A stretch of DNA of 64,000 nt from Candidatus Saccharimonadota bacterium (GCA_034520885.1 JAXHNE010000007.1:54827-118826), one strand, 5' to 3'; counted from the stretch's first letter, positions 7,681-57,617 are shown. The notes: generated by a model from the sequence alone, not told the origin. Numbers and translations are program-made.

Positions 7681-7757
7681 GGGGCATTAGCTCAGCTGGC
7701 TAGAGCGCTACACTGGCAGTGTAGAGGTCATCGGTTCGAATCCGATATGCTCCACCA
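7681..7757 (+). tRNA. tRNA-Ala (anticodon GGC), CCA encoded
   Basis: Manual cloverleaf: acceptor GGGGCAT/ATGCTCC with the G3:U70 Ala identity pair, anticodon loop CTGGCAG, T-loop TTCGAAT, 3' ACCA. Confidence 0.9.
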
Positions 7758-20540: not shown

Positions 20541-21223
20541 ATGAAAGTGCAAATAATTACCTTATTCCCGGAGGTGTATTTGAGCTTTCCACAGCTGCTC
20601 TGATGCCAGACGTGCTCGAAAAGCCACGAAGACGAACAAGCCGGTGGAATTTCAGCTAATCTCAATTTAGCATGAATCTCGGTAAGGGGCCGCATAAAAA
20701 AGTGGATGAAAAGCCATTGATCCACGGTGGCGGCTGACGGCATGTACTCCGGATGAAGGTCGATCACGCTGGCTGCGCGCGATCAAGAGCCTGTACCGCC
20801 AAAAACAACGACCCGGACGCGAAAGTGCTGCTTCCTACTCCCCGCGGAAAGGTTTATAAGCAATCCGACGCCAAGCGTTTGGCGGCCGCCCAAGAGGGAT
20901 TAATTATCGTATGCCCCCGTTATGAAGGCTATGATGAACGCGTAACACAATGGGTCGACGAGCAGTTTTGTATCGGTAACTATGTGCTCACCGGCGGGGA
21001 AATCCCGGCCATGGTAATTTTGGACAGTGTGGTTCGGTTGCTTCCCGGCGTGCTGGGCGGTGAAAACTCAGCGGAGATCGAGTCCTTCCAACGGGACGAT
21101 AAAACAGTCGAGTTTCCTCAGTACACTCGCCCGGAAACCTATCGGGACATAACGGTTCCCGGCGTATTATTAAGCGGAAACCACGCACAAATTCAAAAAT
21201 GGCGGGAGGACAACAATGGGTGA
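20541..21223 (+). pseudogene. trmD: tRNA (guanine37-N1)-methyltransferase TrmD, N-terminal third frame-broken several times
   Basis: MKVQIITLFPEVY... stops at 20601. VEFQLI, GKGPHKKVDEKPLIHGGG and the intact C-terminal ORF 20753-21223 (LIIVCPRYEGYDERV...GGEIPAMVILDSVVRLLPG) lie in different frames. Confidence 0.7.
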
Positions 21224-21929
21224 AGTGATTGAGTTCCCGGGAGGGGAGTATGCGCCGGTTAGCTCCATAATTTCTAAACACAGAAGCAAAGTGGAAGTAT
21301 CCTATGATGTTTCCGAGTTTTTGTTACGTCCAAGCCACGAGGGCTTTAATGCCGAGACTTTTCCCAACGGAACGATCCAGGCAGGAGACAAGGGTTTAAC
21401 GTATTTTTGTGATGTTTTCGGTTCCATAGAAGTAGGTACGCCACCTCCCGTGACTGACATGGAAACCTATTTTTCTTCTGAAGAACCCGAGGAGACAGTT
21501 GAAACGCTGCAGTCGGACTGGTTGTACGCAATTTACTATGCCGCTCGAACCACTCTTCAAGAAGGGTTGAAACGCAACAACTCATTACATAGCGCTCTCG
21601 GTGCGTTGGCAACATGGATTTATAAAAGACAGCCGGGTGCTAGCGAGCCGGGGCGCATTCGTTTTGATTCCACCCATCTTGCGGAAAACTATTTAATAGG
21701 TAAGTACGCGGCCACCTTTGCCGCCAGGACTATGGAGAAAACAACGAAAGCGCCGCACCTGGCGCGGGAAATACATTCACGCGCTTTTGACAAATCAAAA
21801 TTTATGGGTGAGATTAGTGATGACGAAGCGAGAGTACTGAGTCACTTCTCAAATGACGAAGTCATTATAGTCATTACTGAATCTGGAATAAGCTCGCCGG
21901 ACGAAGCAGTCGCACGGCAACTGGGCTAA
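21216..21929 (+). CDS. hypothetical protein, start overlaps the trmD stop (ATGGGTGA)
   Basis: 237-aa ORF with no recognisable motif. It occupies the slot where rplS usually follows trmD. Confidence 0.5.
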   Translation: MGEVIEFPGGEYAPVSSIISKHRSKVEVSYDVSEFLLRPSHEGFNAETFPNGTIQAGDKGLTYFCDVFGSIEVGTPPPVTDMETYFSSEEPEETVETLQSDWLYAIYYAARTTLQEGLKRNNSLHSALGALATWIYKRQPGASEPGRIRFDSTHLAENYLIGKYAATFAARTMEKTTKAPHLAREIHSRAFDKSKFMGEISDDEARVLSHFSNDEVIIVITESGISSPDEAVARQLG

Positions 21930-21986
21930 GAAAGTTATAAGCCTTCCGCTAAATTTGTTACACTAAAGGATATAAAGGGAGGGTTT

Positions 21987-22412
21987 ATGTTCAAAATCAA
22001 ACCTGTTTATGCTCATTGTGATCTTATGTGCGGCGTGTACGACCCGGCGCAAGCCAGGATTGAAGCACAATCCGTATATAACGCCGTGAAAAAATACCAA
22101 GCGTCCGACGACGCGGTTTTCAAACAACGTGCCTTGGCCATCAAGGAAAAACGCGCCGATATGGTGAAAGAGCACCTCTGGGTGTTGTGGACGGATTACT
22201 TTAAGCCCGAACATCTACAAAACCATCCCGACCTACATGACCTTATTTGGCGGGCGACCAAAGCCGCCGGCGACGCCAAAAAAACCGGCAAACTCGAAGA
22301 CGCCCAGAAAACGATTGATCTGGTTGACGAAGTCGGCGCGGTTTTTGCCAAAACCAAAGACGGCTATGATTACGAAGCGGTTAAATCCAATATGGAAGGA
22401 CAGGCCGCGTAA
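21987..22412 (+). CDS. sodN: nickel-containing superoxide dismutase precursor
   Basis: 9-aa leader MFKIKPVYA then HCDLMCGVYDPAQARIEAQSV (Ni-hook HCxxPCGxY, here with M at position 5). GGGAGGG RBS. Confidence 0.9.
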   Translation: MFKIKPVYAHCDLMCGVYDPAQARIEAQSVYNAVKKYQASDDAVFKQRALAIKEKRADMVKEHLWVLWTDYFKPEHLQNHPDLHDLIWRATKAAGDAKKTGKLEDAQKTIDLVDEVGAVFAKTKDGYDYEAVKSNMEGQAA

Positions 22413-22415
22413 GCT

Positions 22416-22700
22416 TTGAGTTGGCCGTTTATGCTTCGGCGGGTCGCCGGTAACAGCATGCACCCCGCTTTACGAAAAGGAAATGTCGTTTTGGCGACCC
22501 GATGGTGGCGCACGTTACGCGCGGGAGACGTGGTAATTTTTGAACACAAAGGGCTGGAAAAAATTAAGCGTATCAGCATGATCAAGGCGGAAAAGCTACG
22601 GGTAACCGGCGATAATGCCGTTCAGAGCACGGACAGTCGCACGTTCGGCTTCATTCCCCGCTCATCGGTAGTCGCAAAAGTGGTGTGGCCGCGGGCATAG
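22416..22700 (+). CDS. sodX: S26-type signal-peptidase homologue, NiSOD maturation protease
   Basis: GNSMHPAL (catalytic Ser box) and EKIKRISM (Lys box), immediately downstream of sodN. Start is TTG 22416 or ATG 22431. Confidence 0.8.
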   Translation: MSWPFMLRRVAGNSMHPALRKGNVVLATRWWRTLRAGDVVIFEHKGLEKIKRISMIKAEKLRVTGDNAVQSTDSRTFGFIPRSSVVAKVVWPRA

Positions 22701-22717
22701 GTATCGTTAGCGTAAAT

Positions 22718-22936
22718 TTATGTATTGATTATAGGTTTCACTGGCGTTGTTATAGCGGTTTTGTTTCGCGCCGTGCATTTTCCCGGTTCCCGTATGTCGC
22801 CGAGAATGTATAGCTTATCGTGGTGTGAATTACGTCGCTTTTCAATTTTGCGAGCTAACTCTAGCAGCTCATCTTTGGGACTTGTCGCGGTTTCGTCAAA
22901 GCCGGTAATGTCGCTTCGGTGATGAAGGCGTTTCAT
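22718..22936 (-). CDS. hypothetical 72-aa protein directly downstream of the CDF gene
   Basis: ATG follows the CDF stop codon with no gap (TAAATG). No motif recognised and a plus-strand ORF overlaps it. Confidence 0.3.
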   Translation of the reverse strand: MKRLHHRSDITGFDETATSPKDELLELARKIEKRRNSHHDKLYILGDIREPGKCTARNKTAITTPVKPIINT

Positions 22937-23866
22937 TTATTTTTCCGGGGTTTCGGCTTCGATTTGTACGCGGGTGATCATGGGCAAACGCTTTTTCAAC
23001 TTCTGCTTGATTCGATCGGTCGTAGTTTCTACTTCATCGGTATTCAAGTCGTCGGCAAAATGCACTTCTACGACCACGAATATTTTCCCGGATCCGACCG
23101 TGATAGCTCGTAAATCCAAAACGTCTTGGACATGCTTCACCGAAAGCGTCGTCCGTTTTATTTCGTTAATGACTTCCGGCCGGGGACTGATTCCGACGAT
23201 AAAACCCCGCAAATTATATATCAAAAGCACCGCACCGGCGACAATCAAGCCGCCTACGATGACCGCGCCGATACCGTCAAAGAACACCTCGCCGGTCAAC
23301 CAAAAAATGAACAATGAAACGAATCCCACTAAAGCGGATAAAGTCCCCATAAGATCAATTAAAAGCGTGGTTTTCGTCTCCACCAAAGAAGAGTGGAATA
23401 TGCGCCGAAGCGTGGCTTTGGTATCGGCGTTTTGTAAAGTGTATCCGAGCCGCCGCAAACTTACGTGCATGGAATAAGCATTGGTTACGAATCCGAAACT
23501 GAGCATACCCAGCGCAATAAGCGGGAACATAACGTTTTGCGGATCAAGGATTTGACGCACCCCTTGGGTTATAGCGAACCCACCGGTCACTACCAGCGCG
23601 AAAATACTGGCCAGTAATGTCCAAAAGAACACTTCTCTCCCGAATCCGAACGGGTGAGTCGCATCGGCCTTTCTGTCGGACTTTTTTACGCCGATAAGCA
23701 GCAGTAGAGCCGTAGTCAAGTCGGCCGCGCCCTGCAAGGCCTGCGCGAGCATGACGGCGCTTTGCGTAAAAACGGCCACAATGATGTTTAGTAAAATATC
23801 ACCGACACTTACCAGAATTGATACGCCCACGGCATGTTCAGCGGACACGTTTTTTGGTTTTGCCAT
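22937..23866 (-). CDS. cation diffusion facilitator (CDF) family metal efflux transporter
   Basis: 6 TM plus a cytoplasmic C-terminal domain, typical CDF sequence (LVSVGDILLN..., HFADDLNTDE). Start chosen at MAKPKN, while the ORF track extends to 23905. Confidence 0.85.
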   Translation of the reverse strand: MAKPKNVSAEHAVGVSILVSVGDILLNIIVAVFTQSAVMLAQALQGAADLTTALLLLIGVKKSDRKADATHPFGFGREVFFWTLLASIFALVVTGGFAITQGVRQILDPQNVMFPLIALGMLSFGFVTNAYSMHVSLRRLGYTLQNADTKATLRRIFHSSLVETKTTLLIDLMGTLSALVGFVSLFIFWLTGEVFFDGIGAVIVGGLIVAGAVLLIYNLRGFIVGISPRPEVINEIKRTTLSVKHVQDVLDLRAITVGSGKIFVVVEVHFADDLNTDEVETTTDRIKQKLKKRLPMITRVQIEAETPEK

Positions 23867-23941
23867 ATCTAAAAGTATAACGCACATGCTTAACGTAACA
23901 ATCATGCTGATTTTTTCTTTGATAAACGTTACAATTTAGCC

Positions 23942-24547
23942 ATGCGTTCATTACGAACATTATGGCCACACAAGGTCGAGCTACTACTGTATGGCATCAT
24001 TGCGGCCATGATTATGACGTTGGGTAATTTTGATTTTTTTGCCCGCCAACTCGGACTTATCGATCATACGACTAATGCAGTAATCACCGATGTTATCAGT
24101 GGGTATATTAATGACGGAGTGCGGTTCATTGACGGATTTTCCGTGACCGCCGTGAGCTCGGTGTTTTTGTTTTGGAGTTTTGTCGGCATCTTGACCCTGA
24201 GTGTTATTCACACCGTTTCCGAAACGTATCACGAAGTCAGCCAAGACGTTGAAGTGGCGACCAAGTTTTATCATCCGCGGCACTTTTCCACTAAAAAGTT
24301 TTGGGTGGGAGTCATAAAACAAGCGGTTTTAAATAGCGGGTTGTACGTTATCGTTTTATTTTTCGTATTTTTCGTCTCCGTCGTTATGTCACCGGTGGCC
24401 GTAAGTGCTCTCCATGAAGTAGTAAGCAATCTCAGCGTAGCGAGCATTGGAATCTTTGTTGGCGCCGCGTTCGCCCTATGGTTAAGTCTAGTGATTCTGG
24501 GCGTTGGAATCCGCCTTATTCTGTTAAGAAAACACTTCCAAGTGTAA
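23942..24547 (+). CDS. hypothetical membrane protein
   Basis: 4-5 TM helices, 201 aa, no recognised domain. Confidence 0.55.
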   Translation: MRSLRTLWPHKVELLLYGIIAAMIMTLGNFDFFARQLGLIDHTTNAVITDVISGYINDGVRFIDGFSVTAVSSVFLFWSFVGILTLSVIHTVSETYHEVSQDVEVATKFYHPRHFSTKKFWVGVIKQAVLNSGLYVIVLFFVFFVSVVMSPVAVSALHEVVSNLSVASIGIFVGAAFALWLSLVILGVGIRLILLRKHFQV

Positions 24548-31707: not shown

Positions 31708-32022
31708 CTACTTAGCCAAAGTCAGTAGCGACTTCATAACGCTATTACCAAAATCGGTCAGGGAGTAATATACTTTCTGACCTTTTTTAGTGTCTGAAAC
31801 TATGCCAATTGCTTTTAGATCTTTCAAGTGATGAGATATAAGACTTTGAGACAGCTTAGTGTGTTCTTCCAGTTCACAGACGCAGTGACTGTCTTTTTGT
31901 AGCACACATAGTAGACGCAGACGACTGTCCTCGCCTATTACTTTCAAAACTGGGCCAAGGTCGGTAATCCGTTTACTGGTTGCTGAGTTAGGAGCGCAGC
32001 AGTCATATGAGTTCATGTTCAT
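31708..32022 (-). CDS. ArsR/SmtB family metal-sensing repressor, CadC-like cysteine pattern
   Basis: RLRLLCVLQKDSHCVCELEEHTKLSQSLISHHLKDLK (CVC in the alpha3 position, wHTH) plus N-terminal DCC. Confidence 0.85.
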   Translation of the reverse strand: MNMNSYDCCAPNSATSKRITDLGPVLKVIGEDSRLRLLCVLQKDSHCVCELEEHTKLSQSLISHHLKDLKAIGIVSDTKKGQKVYYSLTDFGNSVMKSLLTLAK

Positions 32023-32121: not shown

Positions 32122-32215
32122 CACGTGTCCCACAGGTGGCACCGTTTATCTACAGACTTGGTACATCTATATATCAAATTGCAAAAACTAAAGCTGGTAA
32201 CTGGAGGTGGATAAT

Positions 32216-33562
32216 ATGCTACTGCTTGTTTCTGTGGGTAATGTGCATCAAAATACAGTAATGAGCAAAAATCGAGAGCTTACTCCAGAAAATTATTCTG
32301 AATTTTCACAGAGAAGCCTTTTGCAAGGAATAGTGGTTGAGGCTAATAATGAACAGGCCCAATATATTGTTACTCATGTTTTAGATGGCAAGGAAGAAGT
32401 ACTAGATTATGATTTTGATTTCTACCCAGAGTTCAGAACAGCAAGCGTGCATAGCCCATGGTACAGCGAAACTCCCGAAAGTTATCGAGCACTTTTATAT
32501 GAATTGAATGGTGATGAAAGCCCTGACGCGTTTCCTGCAAGTGATTCTGTAGCACTGACTGACAACTTAGAGCTTTTACCAGGAGATACTATTCATGTGC
32601 ATCAAACAATGTTTTGGGAAACAGACGAACAAGGCCGCAAGTCAGGCTACCCCAGGTATGATGTATGCAAACTGCCCGTGGCTAATACGGGTTTAAGTGT
32701 CGTGCTGGAAACAATCAGAGCCGAAAGACTTGAACGTATTGCACAAAAAATTAAAAAGATTGAAGAAGATGAGCAAGAAGCGATGTCAGGCTGTGTAAGA
32801 ATTTTGCCAAACGAGCCTACTAGGCCATTTGAAAATCCAGGTCCGCATAACACGGATAGCAATCGGTATCAGCGCATTAGTTCTCGATACGCGTACGGTG
32901 ACGGTGTTGTCGACGACCATTTTGTTGACATAAAAGCACAAGAAGCTTATATAGGCGATGTAGAGCTTGGTGGAGTACGACGATTTGGCGCTGACGGAAC
33001 TGAATACCTTGTTCCCTCAATAATGCCTTTTGGCGAAGGAACCATCGAGGATCCATTGTATGAACTAGAGATTCACATTCACTCAGAAACAAAACTTAAT
33101 CCTGCTGTCGGTGAGCTACGTGGGTATGTAATGATAGATGGAACTAAATACGAAGCTTTGTTAGACCCGGAAGTTTCCAGCCATTATTTTGAAAATCCTG
33201 GTCACGATATTACATTTTCTGGGTTTCGAGCTGAGGGGGTTCAATTCGACATGGTTGGAATTAACAAAGAACAAAGTGATGCACTTTATGTGCGGAGTAG
33301 ACGAGAGCAGGATATTGCCATGGATCAACTTTATGCGAGCATAGATAGACGTGAAGATTTTGCAGATAAACTGGAGCAAATCGACCAAAGAGCTCAGCAA
33401 GCCGCCCGAGAACAACGGCAACTTCAACAGAAAGAACAAAAGATCATTGATTCAATTCGCAACAATCCTCGAAAATATACTATATCTACAGGTGCATCGA
33501 TACTAGTCCCTAGAAGTATGCTCGATGCTATAGAAGTAGTACTTGGATCGAATCGAGAGTAG
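32216..33562 (+). CDS. orphan 448-aa acidic cytoplasmic protein with C-terminal coiled-coil-like segment
   Basis: Uninterrupted AT-rich ORF. GGAGG sits 8 nt before the ATG at 32216 (the ORF track uses GTG 32207). No motif recognised. QRAQQAAREQRQLQQKEQK near the C-terminus. Confidence 0.6.
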   Translation: MLLLVSVGNVHQNTVMSKNRELTPENYSEFSQRSLLQGIVVEANNEQAQYIVTHVLDGKEEVLDYDFDFYPEFRTASVHSPWYSETPESYRALLYELNGDESPDAFPASDSVALTDNLELLPGDTIHVHQTMFWETDEQGRKSGYPRYDVCKLPVANTGLSVVLETIRAERLERIAQKIKKIEEDEQEAMSGCVRILPNEPTRPFENPGPHNTDSNRYQRISSRYAYGDGVVDDHFVDIKAQEAYIGDVELGGVRRFGADGTEYLVPSIMPFGEGTIEDPLYELEIHIHSETKLNPAVGELRGYVMIDGTKYEALLDPEVSSHYFENPGHDITFSGFRAEGVQFDMVGINKEQSDALYVRSRREQDIAMDQLYASIDRREDFADKLEQIDQRAQQAAREQRQLQQKEQKIIDSIRNNPRKYTISTGASILVPRSMLDAIEVVLGSNRE

Positions 33563-33626: not shown

Positions 33627-33637
33627 GCTTGGCTGGG
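33627..33637. repeat. 11-bp direct repeat copy 2 (gcttggctggg)
   Basis: Overlaps the last 8 nt of tRNA-Gln (minus strand) plus 3 flanking nt. Confidence 0.5.
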
Positions 33638-33703
33638 GATGCAGGATTCGAACCTGCGATCACGGGACCAGAACCCGCTGCCTTACCACTTGGCTAATCC
33701 CCA
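33630..33703 (-). tRNA. tRNA-Gln (anticodon CUG), CCA encoded
   Basis: Manual cloverleaf on the minus strand: TGGGGAT/ATCCCCA acceptor with U1-A72 and G73, anticodon loop TTCTGGT, T-arm GCAGG-TTCGAAT-CCTGC. 74 nt. Confidence 0.9.
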
Positions 33704-33786: not shown

Positions 33787-34521
33787 TCAGTCGAGTGACA
33801 TTTCCAGGTCGGCAACGGGGTCGTACCAGCCTTTATCCAATACGAAAGTTTGGATGTCTTTGTCCAACCCGAACACAATGGCCAGTCCCACGATAATGAG
33901 AATAATGCCGATAACTCGTTTGAACGTTCCATGCGGGTCGGAGAGGACGCCAAGTTTCCGGGTAAATGACTGGCCGGCAAAAGCGATAAGTAATAATGTG
34001 CCGCATAGACCAATGGTGTAGGCGACGAGTAAACCGAATCCCTTTAAAAACGTAGCCGGTAATACGGCGGCCACAATAAACAAGTACGTCGGGCTACAGC
34101 TATTGAACACCGGACCGAGCGCCAACCCGGTGGCGACGTTTTTGGATTGCCCGGACAGGCGCGAACTTTTGCCCAGCAAACTTTGGGTCTTACCGGTAAG
34201 ATTTAATTTTGCGGTTAGTTTTTCCCAGGTGACAGGCAAGGCGAACGTAAGACCGAGCAGCACAATGATAGCTCCGGCAACAACGGCCCAGAACGCCGCG
34301 GGTACCCCGAGCAGCACGCTACTTCCTTTTAGTAGGAGGGTAAACGCGATAATCGACACACCCAGGCTTACGGTAATGACTATCGGCTTGATTGGGTCGC
34401 GTTTCTTAGTTTCATCGTCACTGACCACGCTGGCACCCAGCACCACCGGTAAAAGCGGCAAAATGCACGGCGCGAGGAGTGTCAGGATACCGGCCGCAAA
34501 GGCGGCAATGTAGAGTTCCAT
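33787..34521 (-). CDS. ccdA: cytochrome c biogenesis protein CcdA / DsbD-family thiol-disulfide transporter
   Basis: LLAPCILPLLPVVLG and SPTYLFIV... motifs, 6 TM. Confidence 0.85.
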   Translation of the reverse strand: MELYIAAFAAGILTLLAPCILPLLPVVLGASVVSDDETKKRDPIKPIVITVSLGVSIIAFTLLLKGSSVLLGVPAAFWAVVAGAIIVLLGLTFALPVTWEKLTAKLNLTGKTQSLLGKSSRLSGQSKNVATGLALGPVFNSCSPTYLFIVAAVLPATFLKGFGLLVAYTIGLCGTLLLIAFAGQSFTRKLGVLSDPHGTFKRVIGIILIIVGLAIVFGLDKDIQTFVLDKGWYDPVADLEMSLD

Positions 34522-34524
34522 GGT

Positions 34525-35013
34525 TTAGAGATAGTCGCGAATTACGGCGTCGAAGGTTGGTTCGTTGTAAGCAACGTAATCATCAATTTTTTCGTTGTTT
34601 TCGTCAATCTTTACAAACGTGGTCTGCAGACGCACATCGTATTTAGCCCGCAAATCCTGGTTGCTGTCGTAGTCCACTTTTACAATGGTATACCCGTCGG
34701 GAACGCCGTCAGATTCTATGCCGGCCTCTATGGAGCGGCACTGCGGGCACCACGAGGCGTGGAAAAACAACACTCGCTGTCCTTCGGCGTTGGCCAAAGT
34801 TTCTTCGTCGTACTCAATATAACTCCCCGGGATTGAAGCATCCACCGGCGGAGCTTCCTCGGCGGTCGGTTCTTGCTTTGTAGTCGGTTCCGGCGCGGTT
34901 TCCACTGCGGCTCGGTCGTTATTTTCCGCTTCATCGTTTCGTGAAGCGGTATAAGCGATGGCACCGCTCCCCAGCGCAATAAATAATAGAATAAGTCCCA
35001 GTTTCTTGGCCAT
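34525..35013 (-). CDS. membrane-anchored thioredoxin-fold protein (WCPQC)
   Basis: Signal-anchor then LFFHASWCPQCRSIE. Tandem with ccdA. Confidence 0.8.
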   Translation of the reverse strand: MAKKLGLILLFIALGSGAIAYTASRNDEAENNDRAAVETAPEPTTKQEPTAEEAPPVDASIPGSYIEYDEETLANAEGQRVLFFHASWCPQCRSIEAGIESDGVPDGYTIVKVDYDSNQDLRAKYDVRLQTTFVKIDENNEKIDDYVAYNEPTFDAVIRDYL

Positions 35014-36238: not shown

Positions 36239-36652
36239 TTATTTGCAGTCGGTGCAGAGGCCGCGAATTTCCAGTGTGTGTTCCAGGGCTTTAAATCGGT
36301 TGCGATAGCTGAGTCGGGCGATTTCTTGTTCGATAACCAGGTCTTCGTCCAGGGCGATCACGCGTTCGCAGGCCAGGCAGGTGAGGTGGTGATGGTGTTC
36401 ATGGAACAGTTCGCTGAGCTCGAACTTATATTTCCAACCCAGCTGGACTTTCTTAATCACGCGCAGCTTCTCGAATAAGTCCACATTGCGGTACACACTG
36501 GATTTATCCTGCTTGGGCAGGGCTTCAATAAGTTCCCGCATGCTCATGGATTGATGCCGCATAAAAACTTTAAACAGTTGCACGCGCGGTTTGGTCGCAA
36601 AATGCCCATGTTTTTTTAAGTGGTCCTTAAAGTTTGAAATCGCCTCTTGCAT
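36239..36652 (-). CDS. Fur family transcriptional regulator (Fur/Zur/PerR type)
   Basis: wHTH SVYRNVDLFEKLRVI, HEHHHHLTCLACERV and C-terminal CTDC zinc motifs. Confidence 0.85.
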   Translation of the reverse strand: MQEAISNFKDHLKKHGHFATKPRVQLFKVFMRHQSMSMRELIEALPKQDKSSVYRNVDLFEKLRVIKKVQLGWKYKFELSELFHEHHHHLTCLACERVIALDEDLVIEQEIARLSYRNRFKALEHTLEIRGLCTDCK

Positions 36653-50820: not shown

Positions 50821-52596
50821 ATGAGACATATTTTACGGATTTTGCGCTCGGCTCACGAGCTGAGGAAGTATTACTTGGGCATTAGCATTGTCATGGTGTT
50901 CGTGAGTTTGAGCCAGCTGCTATTGCCGGTACTCAGTGGCCGCGCGGTGGACGAAATTAGCCTGGGCACGGAGGCCGACGCGCGGTACTTGCTTTTGTTG
51001 GCCGGAGGCATTTTTCTTCTGGACGTGGCCAATACGTTCCTAAATAACCTCAGCGGTTATTGGGGTGACCAAATGTCGGAAAAAATGTATCGCATTCTCA
51101 GTACTCGGTACTACGAACATCTACTAACACTGCCGCAAAAATTTTATGACCGTGAACTTTCCGGGAAGCTAATCAATCGTTTGAGCCGCTCCATCGAGCA
51201 GATCACCCGGTTCATGCAAATGATGAGCAATAACTTTTTGCAGTTCATTCTGACCACCGTTTTCGCGTTGGTGTTGATCGCTTACTACAGTTGGCAAGTG
51301 GCGGCATTACTTTTTTCGCTGTATCCGATTTATATCTACCTGACGGTAAGAACCAGTAACCGATGGCAAAAGTACCAGGCCGAAAAGAATGATCATAAAG
51401 ACATTGCCAGTGGACGGTTCGCGGAAGCGATAAGCCAGATCAAGGTGGTCAAAAGCTTTATCCAGGAAAAGACCGAAGCTTCGTTTTTCAGGAAACACCT
51501 AAATAAAATGGTGGGAATTAACCGGCCGCAATCCCGCTTTTGGCACGTGCGTGACGTACGCCGCCGGCTGGTGTTGAATGTGATCTTCTTTTTCGTGTAC
51601 GCGTTTATTTTCTTCCAGGCGGCCAACGGTGACTACACTCCGGGCGTGGCCGTGGCCTTGATTTTGCTTTCCCAGCAGATCCGTATTCCGATTTTCACCA
51701 TCAGCTTTTTGGTGGAAAACATGCAACGGGCGATAGCCGACAGCAAGGATTATTTTGAAATCATGAACGTAAAACCGCAGATCGTCGACCGATCCGGCGC
51801 GCGGAAATTAGGGGTGGATAACGGACACGTGGTATTCGACGACGTATCGTTCGGCTACGAGCGTGACCGGCCGGTAATAAAAAACATCAGCTTTGAAATT
51901 AAACCGGACAGCAAAGTGGCTTTGGTCGGTGAAAGCGGCGAAGGCAAGTCCACGATTACCAATTTATTAATGCGATTATATGAACCGGATAGCGGGGCCA
52001 TTAGTATTGACGGCCAAAACATAAACGATGTCACGCAAAAATCACTTCGGGAGAGTATCGGTGCGGTGTTCCAGGAACCAGCGTTATTTAGCGGTACTAT
52101 TAAGGAAAACATCGCCTACGCTCGCCCCGGCGCCAACCAAAAACGGATTGAAAAGGCCGCCAAAGCGGCCAACGCCCACGATTTTATCCGGACGTTCGAT
52201 AAAGGGTACGATACGGAAATCGGCGAACGCGGCCTAAAACTTTCCGGCGGGCAAAAACAACGTATCGCCATTGCCCGCGCGATTTTAAAAGACGCGCCGA
52301 TACTGATCTTGGACGAAGCCACCAGCAGCCTGGACAGCAAGAGCGAAGCGACCGTACAGGAGGCGCTGGAACGACTCATGCGAGGCCGCACCACCATGAT
52401 TATCGCTCACCGATTGAGTACCATTAAACACGTGGATCGCATTGTCACGCTGAAAAATGGTAAAGTGGATGAAATTGGTTCGCCGCGCGAGTTGGCCAAG
52501 ACCGATGGGATTTACGGGCAGCTTCTTAAACTTCAGGGCGGCAAGACGGAAGCGACCAAGAAGAAGTTAAAAGCCTACGATATCGCGGGCGAATAA
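50821..52596 (+). CDS. ABC transporter, fused permease/ATPase exporter (MsbA/ABCB type)
   Basis: 6 TM plus Walker A GESGEGKST, signature LSGGQKQR, Walker B ILILDEATS. Confidence 0.9.
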   Translation: MRHILRILRSAHELRKYYLGISIVMVFVSLSQLLLPVLSGRAVDEISLGTEADARYLLLLAGGIFLLDVANTFLNNLSGYWGDQMSEKMYRILSTRYYEHLLTLPQKFYDRELSGKLINRLSRSIEQITRFMQMMSNNFLQFILTTVFALVLIAYYSWQVAALLFSLYPIYIYLTVRTSNRWQKYQAEKNDHKDIASGRFAEAISQIKVVKSFIQEKTEASFFRKHLNKMVGINRPQSRFWHVRDVRRRLVLNVIFFFVYAFIFFQAANGDYTPGVAVALILLSQQIRIPIFTISFLVENMQRAIADSKDYFEIMNVKPQIVDRSGARKLGVDNGHVVFDDVSFGYERDRPVIKNISFEIKPDSKVALVGESGEGKSTITNLLMRLYEPDSGAISIDGQNINDVTQKSLRESIGAVFQEPALFSGTIKENIAYARPGANQKRIEKAAKAANAHDFIRTFDKGYDTEIGERGLKLSGGQKQRIAIARAILKDAPILILDEATSSLDSKSEATVQEALERLMRGRTTMIIAHRLSTIKHVDRIVTLKNGKVDEIGSPRELAKTDGIYGQLLKLQGGKTEATKKKLKAYDIAGE

Positions 52597-52607
52597 AGGA
52601 GAAACGA

Positions 52608-55439
52608 GTGAAAAATCAAACGTCCAACAAAAAAGGGCTTTTCGCCGCGATTGCCGCCACGTTTTTCAAGCATGCCCGGCTGGTAGTGATCGGCTTGCTG
52701 GTGCTGCTGATCGCCGGGGGTACCATCTATGGTTCGGTGATTAAGCGTGAAGGTTTTCCGTCGATCCAGTTCCCGTTGACGTTCGTTAACGGATTTTACT
52801 TCGTGGATGATAAAGCCCAGGTCGACCAAGATATCGCCCAACCGTTTTACCAAGCGGTAAAAGATCTTAACGGCGTGGAGACGGTGCAAACTACGGCCAA
52901 CGCCAATGATTTTACCGGCGTAGTGTACTTTGAAGAATCGGTGACCCCACAAGAAGGCGCGGAGGAGGTCCGCCAAGCAATCGAAGGGCAGTTTCCCGAG
53001 CAAGCGCAATTTAACGTAATTAGCATTGACCCGGCGGCGTATCTGAATAAATACGACATGCTACTGACGGTTTACGGCGAAAACGGTGATGTCGCTAAAC
53101 TGCAAGAAGTCGCCGGTTTCGTGGCCGAAGATATCGAAGGATTGGAAGAAGTAACGCTGGCCGAGCCGCAACCACTGATTTCCGAATCGGAAAATTCCGC
53201 TACGGGCGAGCCACAACCGACTCGAACGTCGTTTAACCGGGTCGGGCTTCCGGATAACGGCGGTTTGGAATTTAGTAACGCGGTGACTATCGGCGTGGAT
53301 CGCGATCAGGATAAGTATGACGTTATCGAACTGTCCGAAGCGGTCCAAGCATATTTGAACGACTTGGATTTGTCGCAATTCGGCGAGGGATATGACGCGG
53401 TAATCGGCGCCGACTTCGCCGAATCAATTAATACGCAAATTAATTCCCTTCAAGATAATTTATTTACCGGGTTAATCGCGGTCGCCGTGGTCAGCTTGCT
53501 GCTTATAACCTGGCGGGCGTCGATTATTACGGCCGTGTTCATGGTGACGGTTATGGCCGCCACCATCGCCATTTTATTCGCCGTAGGGTATACGCTAAAC
53601 ACCATTACGCTTTTCGCGCTTGTTCTGTCGCTCGGCCTGTTCGTGGATGACGCCACCATTGTGGTAGAGGCCATTGACGCCGCCAAGCGCAAACGCAAAA
53701 AAGGCCTTCGGGTCGTCAAAGAGGCGGTGGGCAAAATTGGTGCCGCCAGCTTTGCCGGTACCTTCACCACCGTATTGGTATTTTTGCCGCTGGCCTTCAT
53801 TAGCGGTGTCCTCGGTGAGTTCATCCGTCTGTTACCGATTACCGTAATCATTGCTTTGGTGGCTTCTTTGGCATTGTCGTTGACGGTCATTCCGGTGCTT
53901 TCCAAGTTCTTATTGTTGCGGAGTGATAAGAAAAGCCTGCTTACCAAGATGAATCCGGTGGCTTTCGTCGAAAGTTGGCTCGGGCGCCTTACGGGAGCGC
54001 TTCCGCGGACGCTGAAAACCCGGCCCAAGCTCGGTCGCGGCCTGGCGGTATTTATGGTGCTTTTGAGTATTGCCGGACTTATCGGGGCACTCGGGTTTGC
54101 CGGCCGTGTGCCGTTTAATATTTTCCCGTCCAGCAAGGACAGCAACCAGATTGGCGTTACGCTGGACTTCCCGGAAGGCCACACCATTGAACGGGCGGAA
54201 GCGACTTCCCAAGAAGTCGAACAGATAATCGAAGAAGAAGCCGGCGACCTGGTGCGCCGGGTGACCTACGGAAGTTTCAGTATCGTGCAGCCCAATGAGC
54301 GCAGCGCGGATATTCTCGTGGACTTGATACCGTTCAATGAGCGGGATCGAACGTCACAGGATATCATTGCCGCACTGCAAACGGAGCTGAACCGGGAGCT
54401 GGAGGATACGCGCGCCAAAGTGGTGCAATACGATGCCGGGCCGCCAGTGGACGATTATCCGTTCAAGGTGCAAATTTACAATGAAGACGAAGCCGCCGCC
54501 CTGCGTCTCGCCGAAGAAGTCCGAGAGTACATTGAAGGAGCGACCATCACCCGGCCGAATGGCACGGAAGCCGAAATAACCGACACCAACCCGCCCGGAA
54601 GTTCCGCGGTTCGCCGCAGCGACGGTCGGCAATTCGTAGAAATTACCGCCGCTTTTAACGCCGGCGACACCTCCGCGCTGTTGGTGGCCGCGGAAGACCA
54701 TACCAAGGAAAAATTTACCGATGAGTATCTTGAAAATAACGGATACCGGGATACGGAAATTAGCTACGACTTCGGGCAGGAATCGGAAAACGCCGAATCA
54801 TTCGCCGCGCTTGGCGTGGTGTTTCCGGTGGCACTGGGATTAATGTACGTGCTACTGGCCGTTCAGTTCCGGTCACTCTTGCAGCCGCTACTAATTTTTG
54901 TCGCCATCCCGTTCACGTTTTTGGGTGTGTTCGCCGGCTTACACTATACCGATAACGGGCTAAGTTTCTTCGTGATGGTCGGGCTCATCGGCTTGATCGG
55001 TATTGCCGTCAACAACACGATTTTGCTGACTACGTACATTAACCAGGAACGCGCGGCGGGCGAGGTGCCGATTGACGCCGCGGCCAACGCCGTCACTAAA
55101 CGCTTCCGCCCGCTTTTGGCAACCACATTGACCACTATCGTGGCCTTGCTACCATTGGCGCTAACCGATCCGTTCTGGGAGCCACTGGCTTTCACGATTA
55201 TTTTCGGCCTGGCTAGCAGTACCTTTTTCGTCCTGGTATCTTTCCCGTACTATTACCTGGGCTTTGAGCGCTTGCGCCGTTCCGTTAAGGCCAAAAAGGT
55301 AGCGCTATGGCTACTGGGGCTCGTCGGGCTGCTGGTTTACGTCGGCATCGGTAATTCGTCCTACGTTTTGGCCGTGCTCGGGCTGTACGCCGTTTCCACG
55401 ATTTTGCTTAGTAAACTGTGGGCCAAAATCGGCATGTAA
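52608..55439 (+). CDS. RND superfamily efflux transporter permease
   Basis: 943 aa, 12-TM 1+5/1+5 topology with two large loops. ALVLSLGLFVDDATIVVEA is typical of AcrB-family TM4. Confidence 0.85.
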   Translation: MKNQTSNKKGLFAAIAATFFKHARLVVIGLLVLLIAGGTIYGSVIKREGFPSIQFPLTFVNGFYFVDDKAQVDQDIAQPFYQAVKDLNGVETVQTTANANDFTGVVYFEESVTPQEGAEEVRQAIEGQFPEQAQFNVISIDPAAYLNKYDMLLTVYGENGDVAKLQEVAGFVAEDIEGLEEVTLAEPQPLISESENSATGEPQPTRTSFNRVGLPDNGGLEFSNAVTIGVDRDQDKYDVIELSEAVQAYLNDLDLSQFGEGYDAVIGADFAESINTQINSLQDNLFTGLIAVAVVSLLLITWRASIITAVFMVTVMAATIAILFAVGYTLNTITLFALVLSLGLFVDDATIVVEAIDAAKRKRKKGLRVVKEAVGKIGAASFAGTFTTVLVFLPLAFISGVLGEFIRLLPITVIIALVASLALSLTVIPVLSKFLLLRSDKKSLLTKMNPVAFVESWLGRLTGALPRTLKTRPKLGRGLAVFMVLLSIAGLIGALGFAGRVPFNIFPSSKDSNQIGVTLDFPEGHTIERAEATSQEVEQIIEEEAGDLVRRVTYGSFSIVQPNERSADILVDLIPFNERDRTSQDIIAALQTELNRELEDTRAKVVQYDAGPPVDDYPFKVQIYNEDEAAALRLAEEVREYIEGATITRPNGTEAEITDTNPPGSSAVRRSDGRQFVEITAAFNAGDTSALLVAAEDHTKEKFTDEYLENNGYRDTEISYDFGQESENAESFAALGVVFPVALGLMYVLLAVQFRSLLQPLLIFVAIPFTFLGVFAGLHYTDNGLSFFVMVGLIGLIGIAVNNTILLTTYINQERAAGEVPIDAAANAVTKRFRPLLATTLTTIVALLPLALTDPFWEPLAFTIIFGLASSTFFVLVSFPYYYLGFERLRRSVKAKKVALWLLGLVGLLVYVGIGNSSYVLAVLGLYAVSTILLSKLWAKIGM

Positions 55440-56509: not shown

Positions 56510-56672
56510 GTAAAGAAGCGGAGCGTCGTGTCGACGATTTGAAGGCCGGAAGAGCGCGAAGTGGATAGTGTGCCATCAGTGCCGTAAAACGGCAAATTAA
56601 TGATCGCGGTCGACAATAAATGATAAAATGGGCGCCGGGTACGATACCAACAATGATGAGTCTGGAGAGGTT

Positions 56673-57617
56673 ATGAGCGAGGACAACAAAGTACATGACG
56701 TAGTAATGATCGGAGCCGGTCCGGCGGCACTTTCGGCGGCGATTTACACCACTCGTGAAGAATTGGACACCGTTTTGTTCGAAAAGGGCGTGATTGGCGG
56801 CTTGGCGGCCATTACCGACTGGGTGGACAACTATCCGGGCTTCTCCGAAGGGGTTTCCGGATTGGATTTATCGGAGGAGCTGCGCAAGCAGGCCGAACGG
56901 TTCGGCGCGGATATCCGTTTGGGCGAGGTGAGCAAAATCAGCGACAAGGGCGAATACAAAGAACTGGAAACCACCGACGGCACCGTCAAGGCCAAGGCCG
57001 TATTGCTGGCCACCGGCAGTGATTATAAAAAGCTGGGCATCCCCGGCGAGAAAGAATACTACGGCCGCGGCGTGCACTACTGCGCGACCTGCGACGGCGC
57101 GTTTTATAAGGATAAGCGTTTGGTAGTAGTCGGCGGCGGCAATTCGGCCATTCAAGAATCCATCTTTTTGACCAAGTTCGCCAGTAAGATCGACATTCTG
57201 GTGCGCAGCGACCGGCTGAAGGCTTCGGAGATTTTGCAAGAAGAACTCAAAAAACACGAGGACAAAGTCACCGTCCACTACCACACTACCAGTAAAGAAA
57301 TTGTCGGCGAAGACGGCAAAGTCACCAAGGTCGTCGCCCAAAATACCAAAGATGACAAAGAAGTTATTTTCGAAACGGACGGGGTATTCGTGTTTATCGG
57401 TTTGTTGCCCAACACCGATTTTCTGAAGGAAAGCGACGTAAAACTGGACGAAATCGGCATGATCGTAACCGACCAATACCTGGAAACCTCCATGAAGGGC
57501 GTGTTTGCCGCCGGGGACGTTCGTAGCGGCGCGACCATGCAAATTGCCAGCGCCTCGGGCGAAGGGGCTACTTCGGCCTTGATGATACGGAAATATCTTG
57601 AACCGCATCACCAATAG
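56673..57617 (+). CDS. trxB: thioredoxin-disulfide reductase
   Basis: VVMIGAGPAALSAAIY, redox-active CATCDG, VVGGGNSA. Start chosen at the ATG at 56673 after GGAGAGG. Confidence 0.9.
   Translation: MSEDNKVHDVVMIGAGPAALSAAIYTTREELDTVLFEKGVIGGLAAITDWVDNYPGFSEGVSGLDLSEELRKQAERFGADIRLGEVSKISDKGEYKELETTDGTVKAKAVLLATGSDYKKLGIPGEKEYYGRGVHYCATCDGAFYKDKRLVVVGGGNSAIQESIFLTKFASKIDILVRSDRLKASEILQEELKKHEDKVTVHYHTTSKEIVGEDGKVTKVVAQNTKDDKEVIFETDGVFVFIGLLPNTDFLKESDVKLDEIGMIVTDQYLETSMKGVFAAGDVRSGATMQIASASGEGATSALMIRKYLEPHHQ

Follow-up and report, generated by a model that had tools for sequence, protein, structure and literature searches.

A predicted sodN-sodX module with methionine in the nickel hook in a Saccharibacteria genome

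Introduction

In the Streptomyces structures of nickel superoxide dismutase (NiSOD), the fifth residue of the nickel-binding hook is a proline that is described as shaping the turn of the hook, and synthetic peptide mimics of the hook have been reported to tolerate its replacement. The motif H-C-x-x-P-C-G-x-Y, of which this proline is a part, defines NiSOD and has been used as a filter (PMC4460010; see also PMC2234264). Here we describe a sodN gene, encoding NiSOD, which has methionine at hook position 5 and is directly followed by a gene for a predicted SodX-type maturation protease. The pair lies in a stretch of 64,000 nucleotides from Candidatus Saccharimonadota bacterium (GCA_034520885.1, JAXHNE010000007.1:54827-118826), which is called the window below.

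The presence of sodN in Patescibacteria with reduced genomes has been reported and read as the result of horizontal gene transfer (HGT); the patescibacterial sequences were placed among those of Chloroflexota, and Chloroflexota donors were inferred (Sutherland et al. 2021, bioRxiv 10.1101/2021.01.12.426412). The words 'hook' and 'motif' do not occur in the text of that study. The first-pass annotation of the window, which was made by a model from the sequence alone, had considered it unusual that a NiSOD should be found in a minimal genome of the Candidate Phyla Radiation (CPR) type, and also that its hook should lack the proline. Since NiSOD of Patescibacteria had already been published, the former of these observations is not unusual; the latter is taken up below.

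Results

The sodN product is a NiSOD by profile, alignment and predicted fold

According to the first-pass annotation, one open reading frame (ORF) of the window encodes SodN with a short leader in front of a nickel hook (Table 1), and a search with the Sod_Ni profile had been proposed as a check. This search gave a significant match to Pfam Sod_Ni (PF09055; 4.9e-35, 121.3 bits vs a cutoff of 25), and the equivalog TIGR02753 'superoxide dismutase, Ni' was matched with 127.9 bits (cutoff 90). The protein also aligned to PDB 1q0d (7.9e-33), with no gap between His1 and residue 115, and together these matches bear out the earlier assignment. Under the name 'superoxide dismutase, Ni [Candidatus Saccharibacteria bacterium]', an identical protein has been deposited in NCBI. 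Judged by its sequence matches, the sodN-sodX pair of the window is a genuine and ordinary NiSOD/SodX module, the NiSOD of which had already been annotated.

The window hook, HCDLMCGVY, pairs residue for residue with HCDLPCGVY of PDB 1q0d/1t6i. His1 is encoded by cat (22014-16), Cys2 by tgt (22017-19), Cys6 by tgc (22029-31) and Tyr9 by tac (22038-40), and position 5 is Met, encoded by atg at 22026-22028 (codon 14 of sodN). The nickel ligands His1 (directly after the leader), Cys2 and Cys6 are all present and are invariant in 306 homologues. The window protein thus agrees with the published motif at five of its six specified positions and deviates from it at Pro5. Residues H1, C2, D3, C6, G7, Y9, E17, R39, R47, D61, Y62 and K64 are identical in 1q0d and in the window SodN, and they are nearly invariant in 242 sequences that have a residue other than proline at position 5 (hereafter non-Pro sequences). 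Apart from position 5, these are the residues of functional importance in the Streptomyces enzyme, with Asp3, Tyr9, Glu17, Arg47, Asp61, Tyr62 and Lys64 as its second-sphere or gating residues. The GGGAGGG sequence upstream of sodN is kept in the closest relatives (loci L001 and L122).

The AlphaFold2 model of SodN, which had a mean pLDDT (predicted local distance difference test score) of 87.5 and a pTM (predicted template modelling score) of 0.81, contains helices at residues 20-39, 43-71, 74-79, 83-99, 103-123 and 129-140. When compared by Foldseek with NiSOD structures, the model gave template modelling (TM) scores of 0.90-0.96 and root mean square deviations of 0.8-2.5 Å, and every one of the top 16 matches in the PDB was a NiSOD. 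As modelled, the window SodN has the right-handed four-helix-bundle fold of NiSOD. The C-terminal extension is predicted as the helix 129-140, along which pLDDT drops from 79 to 57; Y127, Y129 and N135 of the extension are invariant in the window protein and its close relatives (alignment A1).

Residues other than proline are common at hook position 5

The residue at hook position 5 was surveyed in three ways. Among the 120 closest protein clusters at 90% identity, 119 had an intact hook, and the residue was Met in 93, Phe in 24, Ala in two and Pro in none of these. When the best 150 representatives at 50% identity were taken instead, the 105 intact hooks had Pro in 93 cases, Tyr in seven, Phe in three and Met in two. 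The third survey covered the GTDB species genomes and position-5 codons that do not start with C, with Leu, His, Gln and Arg codons excluded; it yielded at least 120 loci, with Tyr in at least 72, Phe in at least 38 and Met in at least 10 of them. The matches listed included Acidimicrobiia/Ilumatobacteraceae, many cultured Mycobacterium and Mycolicibacterium, Ilumatobacter nonamiensis and Euzebya, as well as one Myxococcota and four Saccharimonadia metagenome-assembled genomes (MAGs). Neither protein survey (119 and 105 hooks) contained Leu, His, Gln or Arg at this position, and over the surveys it was always occupied by P, M, F, Y or A.

The methionine that had been pointed out in the first-pass annotation is truly present, but its description as an oddity does not stand. 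That annotation had itself stated that the claim would fall if residues other than proline were common at position 5, and this is what the closest relatives and the GTDB loci revealed. By these surveys, Met5 is the norm for a large NiSOD branch and is not peculiar to the window genome.

The codon itself was conserved as well. An independent Logan assembly (L001) encodes a protein identical to the window SodN, and in a DNA alignment of five genomes the ATG of position 5 is invariant, whereas the third positions of the adjacent His, Asp, Leu, Cys, Gly, Val and Tyr codons vary. A fixed ATG amid varying third positions indicates that selection acts on the amino acid. Read from these alignments, Met5 is real, being neither an error nor a private mutation.

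The non-Pro sequences share further characters

Comparison of alignment columns between 242 non-Pro and 64 Pro sequences revealed that the hook HCDL[MFY]CGVYDPAQA is almost invariant in the non-Pro group, and that columns 22-24, 87 and 90 together with the C-terminal tail separate the two groups. Lys90 occurs in 235 and Asp/Glu87 in 222 of the 242 non-Pro sequences, and the group bears a C-terminal extension of 10-15 residues. In a neighbour-joining (NJ) tree the non-Pro sequences form two halves, one Saccharibacteria-like (M/F/A) and the other from Actinomycetota (F/Y/M); when column 5 was left out, 55 of the 57 non-redundant non-Pro sequences remained in one clade, which had zero Pro members. 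Organism names were available for the matches of the GTDB scan (at least 120 listed), in which the labelled non-Pro relatives are Actinomycetota. The shared characters suggest a single origin of the non-Pro group. Such NiSODs apparently make up a large and uncharacterised subfamily, seemingly undiscussed in the literature.

Close relatives exchange Met, Phe, Tyr and Ala for one another at position 5, which makes a role of this side chain as a metal ligand improbable. Most likely the residue, which in the subfamily is bulky and hydrophobic (Met, Phe or Tyr, rarely Ala), takes part in packing at the active-site pocket or forms part of its lining.

A SodX-type protease gene follows sodN

The ORF next to sodN had been reported to carry the Ser box GNSMHPAL and the Lys box KRI of an S26 peptidase, as expected for SodX. 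Both boxes were found in it, and the 94-aa ORF matched Pfam Peptidase_S26 at 3.1e-13 (50.4 bits vs a cutoff of 22.9) and aligned to the signal peptidase I 4nv4 over both catalytic boxes (GNSMHP and KRI) and also over GDNAVQSTDSR. The ORF aligns to the SodX model TIGR02754 over nearly every position of the model (2-90 of 90). The ORF has zero transmembrane segments and zero hydrophobic 19-mers over the threshold, and its start lies 4-19 nt 3' of the sodN stop codon.

When sodN loci were searched by phmmer with the window SodX, an S26 ORF was found to adjoin sodN in 71 of 121. In all five Saccharibacteria loci, namely L001 (the Logan-assembly contig of the window itself), L033, L046, L047 and L061, the S26 ORF follows sodN in the same direction, and in 65 Actinomycetota loci it precedes sodN and is divergently oriented; in the gene calls of two further Saccharibacteria genomes (L122 and L124) Sod_Ni is likewise followed by Peptidase_S26. 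Nine other sodN-adjacent S26 proteins were compared with TIGR02754, of which seven matched at 34-52 bits and two gave no match. As all the matching neighbours stay below the cutoff of the model, the model appears to be narrow and the window SodX not aberrant. A consequence is that the TIGR02754 cutoff overlooks the partner proteases of the non-Pro branch.

The cleavage site was compared in 231 homologues, of which 230 have Ala at position -1 and 227 have Val or Ala at position -3. The V-Y-A↓H of the window fits the classical A/V-x-A rule of S26 peptidases, and cleavage at this point is predicted from this substrate motif.

SodX fares badly in existing annotations, and two observations concern the sodX genes of other genomes. 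The NCBI call of SodX in L122 (6473-6724) starts at the Met of 'SM' in the Ser box and omits the catalytic Ser. The SodX-like ORFs L047 3924-4190 and L033 1922-2179 are without the DSR box and may be degenerate.

The pair lies within a conserved housekeeping gene order

The gene order LeuRS-NusB-NUDIX-RNase III-S16-KhpA-TrmD-(variable ORF)-SodN-SodX is common to the window, GCA_041600755.1 and GCA_021811625.1, the SodN proteins of which are 84% and 78% identical to that of the window, respectively. The GC content and the GC content at third codon positions (GC3) are 0.50 and 0.56 for sodN and 0.55 and 0.62 for sodX, the means of the window genes being 0.51 and 0.58. The shared housekeeping order and the typical GC and GC3 imply that the pair is an old resident rather than a recent import, and an ancient transfer of sodN-sodX is possible.

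The slot between trmD and sodN is occupied in the window by a 237-aa ORF (Table 1), and in L122 and L124 by ORFs of 283 and 315 aa that have no detectable similarity to the 237-aa ORF or to each other. By this comparison, the slot is a hypervariable position inside a conserved housekeeping cluster. The 237-aa ORF was considered as a conserved accessory or chaperone gene and rejected, because unrelated ORFs occupy the same slot in L122 and L124 and no family match was obtained.

Other genes and features of the window

The coordinates of the sodN-sodX locus and of its immediate neighbours are collected in Table 1.

Table 1. Features of the sodN-sodX locus and adjacent genes, in positions of the 64,000-nucleotide window
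Feature	Position	Strand	Remarks
237-aa ORF	21216-21929	+	overlaps trmD stop codon; no Pfam/NCBIfam match
Shine-Dalgarno-like GGGAGGG	21977..21983	+	3 nt 5' of sodN ATG; read directly
sodN ORF	21987-22412	+	141 aa; starts MFKIKPVYA, then HCDLMCGVYDPAQARIEAQSV
SodN leader MFKIKPVYA	21987..22013	+	9 aa; ends in V-x-A cleavage motif
Nickel hook HCDLMCGVY	22014..22040	+	canonical His1, Cys2, Cys6, Gly7, Tyr9; Met5
Mature SodN (predicted)	22014..22412	+	132 aa + stop; four-helix bundle + additional C-terminal helix
SodN C-terminal extension	22362..22409	+	~15 aa, GYDYEAVKSNMEGQAA; without counterpart in Streptomyces NiSOD by column comparison
SodX-type S26 serine protease	22416..22700	+	94 aa from TTG 22416 or 89 aa from ATG 22431
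SodX Ser box GNSMHPAL	22449-22472	+	Ser codon 22455-57
SodX Lys box KRI	22566-22574	+	Lys codon 22566-68
SodX GDN..S.DSR box, GDNAVQSTDSR	22608-22640	+	
Cation diffusion facilitator (CDF)-family cation efflux transporter	22937-23905	-	Cation_efflux 1.2e-25 + ZT_dimer; TIGR01297

The first-pass annotation had also noted a CDF metal exporter adjoining the pair on the other strand and the absence of a nickel importer from the window. The domain matches of the former agree with this. However, a CDF homologue was found next to sodN in none of L033, L046, L047, L061, L122 and L124, and the transporter was rejected as a functional partner of sodN because the linkage is absent from these six other Saccharibacteria-type loci. 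As for nickel uptake, no Pfam match to the NiCoT, HupE/UreJ, CbiM or Nik families was obtained among 10 membrane or regulatory proteins of the window, and the signature motifs of NiCoT (HX4DH), HupE and CbiM were not found in its membrane ORFs, so the earlier observation holds for the 64 kb covered. No NiCo or other riboswitch or regulatory RNA was found near sodN or the CDF gene, and a scan of 21700-23000 for sigma-70-like promoters found none. The sole Rfam matches of the window are two tRNA genes, at 7681-7754 (+) and 33633-33703 (-).

Beside the CDF gene lies a 201-aa ORF (23942-24547, +) with six predicted transmembrane segments and no family match; in its place the Logan annotation has an ORF of 96 aa that runs the other way (23984-24274, -). 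Two regulators are encoded farther away, one of the Fur family at 36239-36652 (-; FUR 2.4e-16, HEHHHH...CxxC) and one of the ArsR/SmtB family at 31708-32022 (-; HTH_5 1.8e-15). For each of them a role as metal or peroxide sensor with relevance to sodN is conceivable, although nothing ties either to that gene.

A 451-aa ORF at 32207-33562 (+) has a GC content of 0.42 and a GC3 of 0.31, which are to be compared with the window gene means given above, and the ~5 kb before it (about 26.7-32 kb) holds short or uncertain ORFs only; this region together with the 451-aa ORF may be a foreign island. Other genes of redox defence are present in the form of a DsbD/CcdA-like membrane protein at 33787-35013 (-) with an adjacent thioredoxin-fold protein, and of a probable thioredoxin-reductase-like flavoprotein at 56628-57617 (+), which was assigned from an N-terminal GxGxxA motif alone. 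At 50821-55439 (+), an ABC exporter (ABC_membrane and ABC_tran) is followed by a 943-aa transporter of the RND/AcrB family.

Discussion

A probable functional two-gene NiSOD module

Our computations concern the identity of the genes, the conservation of motifs, the predicted fold, synteny and the spread of residues at position 5; that SodN is processed, binds nickel and is active, and what residue 5 does in it, we infer from these. It is very likely that sodN-sodX of the window is a functional two-gene NiSOD module that has long been resident in the Saccharibacteria lineage. SodN would be synthesised as a 141-aa precursor, and the small cytoplasmic S26 Ser/Lys protease SodX, which is probably co-translated with it, would cut after Val-Tyr-Ala9 and leave His10 as the new N-terminus, i.e., as His1. 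His1 (through its free amine and its imidazole), Cys2 (through its backbone amide and its thiolate) and Cys6 (through its thiolate) would then wrap nickel as a hook on the four-helix bundle, and cycling between Ni(II) and Ni(III) would dismutate superoxide. The window enzyme is expected to work like the canonical NiSOD. An epibiotic Saccharibacterium with a reduced genome would retain a nickel-dependent superoxide defence in a core gene neighbourhood.

Several points weigh against this interpretation. The pLDDT falls below 50 at SodN residues 4-16, and the AlphaFold model is uninformative on the hook. Within the published motif Pro5 is treated as diagnostic and necessary (PMC4460010), and when we searched the literature for Pro5 variants, whether natural or engineered, we found no paper on any non-Pro5 NiSOD. 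The bootstrap value of the non-Pro clade is just 6%, by which its single origin is not established. On the side of the protease, the TIGR02754 score of 52.5 bits is under the trusted cutoff of 63.25, and sodX is uncalled in the Logan annotation of the contig that carries the window gene (L001 4385-4669). Moreover, neither a nickel importer nor a nickel chaperone was found within the 64-kb window, which is a fraction of the genome only.

Alternative explanations

The chance that Met5 results from an error of sequencing, assembly or MAG consensus and that the true codon is Pro is negligible, and we rejected an error at 22026-28: the independent assembly L001 gave the identical protein, the ATG stands in five different genomes with divergent codons around it, HCDLMCGVY is carried by 93 distinct clusters at 90% identity, and a change from Pro (CCN) to Met (ATG) takes at least two base changes. 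A recent horizontal acquisition of the pair into a minimal CPR genome, e.g., from an Actinomycetota host, would fit with the occurrence of the non-Pro subfamily in Acidimicrobiia and Mycobacteriaceae, with the few Actinomycetota Met5 sequences that branch beside the Saccharibacteria clade in the NJ tree and with the repeated HGT of sodN into Patescibacteria inferred in published work (bioRxiv 10.1101/2021.01.12.426412). We nevertheless regard it as unlikely, given that the GC content and GC3 of the pair are typical of the window, that the pair stands inside a housekeeping order conserved among genomes with SodN proteins as far apart as 78-84% identity, and that the orientation of sodX is unlike the Actinomycetota arrangement; besides, the deep branches of the tree have negligible bootstrap values, which point to no particular donor or direction.

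It is most unlikely that another protease matures SodN and that the 94-aa ORF, rather than a dedicated SodX, is a general or degenerate fragment of signal peptidase I or a non-coding stretch. It is true that the ORF misses the TIGR02754 cutoff while it exceeds that of the generic TIGR02227 (59 vs 47), but TIGR02754 is its sole full-length match, TIGR02227 being partial, and the sodN-adjacent S26 matches of the subfamily all lie below the TIGR02754 cutoff, so that this cutoff looks too narrow and the protein is probably not aberrant. Likewise, the ORF has no obvious ribosome-binding site, is missing from the Logan annotation of the same contig and has orthologues without a DSR box in L047 and L033; against this, its place directly after sodN is kept in seven Saccharibacteria-type loci, Peptidase_S26 is called in L122-L125, the GC3 of 0.62 is typical of coding sequence in the window, and a membrane anchor is absent, unlike in LepB. 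A loss of Pro5 could also mark a functional shift, with a different metal, a ligand at residue 5 (e.g., a Met thioether) or a redox function other than that of a superoxide dismutase. The limitation of position 5 to M, F, Y and rarely A suggests that the residue is selected and not drifting, the accompanying changes at K90, D/E87 and the C-terminal helix hint at remodelled surroundings of the active site, and no nickel importer is encoded near sodN within the window. Yet such a shift is very unlikely: the replacement of Met by Phe, Tyr and Ala in close relatives disfavours a ligand role, all the nickel ligands and all the known second-sphere residues are kept, and so is SodX along with the A-x-A↓H site that it would cut, both of which serve to free His1 for nickel.

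The proline-less hook and its implications

Returning to sodN-sodX as a probable NiSOD module, we propose, tentatively and as one possibility, that the non-Pro sequences represent a distinct NiSOD subfamily, in which the change from Pro5 to Met, Phe or Tyr and the co-evolved Lys90, Asp/Glu87 and C-terminal helix provide an alternative structural solution for the hook turn. If this were true, the subfamily may differ in hook folding, nickel loading or substrate access, and surveys filtered by HCxxPCGxY would overlook it in CPR bacteria, Acidimicrobiia and cultivable mycobacteria. The textbook nickel-hook motif is too strict: most lineages have Pro at position 5, but a considerable branch, with culturable species of Mycobacterium and Ilumatobacter among its members, carries Met, Phe or Tyr there. 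In consequence, NiSODs are undercounted in motif-based censuses, and the structural role of Pro5 could be studied by means of natural variants from growable organisms.

Comparison with known systems

The window SodN is ~47-50% identical over 115 residues to the NiSODs of Streptomyces coelicolor and S. seoulensis (1T6U, 1Q0D), with which it shares the four-helix-bundle fold (predicted, TM 0.90-0.96) and, beside the ligands and second-sphere residues, the identical Leu4, Val8, Asp10 and Pro11. In both cases the leader is cleavable and ends in Ala, which for the window protein is a prediction. The window enzyme differs by Met5 in place of Pro5, an extra C-terminal helix of ~15 residues, Lys90 and Asp87. 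Its leader is also different, comprising 9 aa, whereas that of the Streptomyces enzyme is presumably 14 aa long.

The downstream protein resembles SodX (TIGR02754; MEROPS S26) in its size of ~90 aa, the absence of a membrane anchor, the position of its gene next to sodN, the Ser, Lys and GDN..S.DSR boxes and a substrate with V/A-x-A before His1. It differs from described SodX in scoring below the TIGR02754 cutoff (52.5 vs 63.25). In contrast to the Actinomycetota loci, in which sodX is divergent and upstream, sodX of Saccharibacteria is co-directional and downstream. With respect to relatives, our results differ from those of Sutherland et al., who placed the patescibacterial sequences among Chloroflexota: among the matches listed in the GTDB scan, the sole set bearing names, the labelled non-Pro relatives are Actinomycetota.

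A proline-less hook of the same type as in the window protein, HCDL[Y/F]CGVYDPAQA, is carried by NiSODs with Tyr5 or Phe5 in cultured Mycobacterium/Mycolicibacterium and Ilumatobacter, such as M. rhodesiae JS60, M. hodleri, M. flavescens, M. elephantis, M. agri and I. nonamiensis YM16-303. They also share the C-terminal extension (their mature proteins have ~126 aa) and, mostly, the adjacent S26 protease. The differences are that they have Tyr or Phe at position 5 and a divergent upstream sodX, and that their identity to the window SodN is ~50% or lower, at a distance of at least 0.63.

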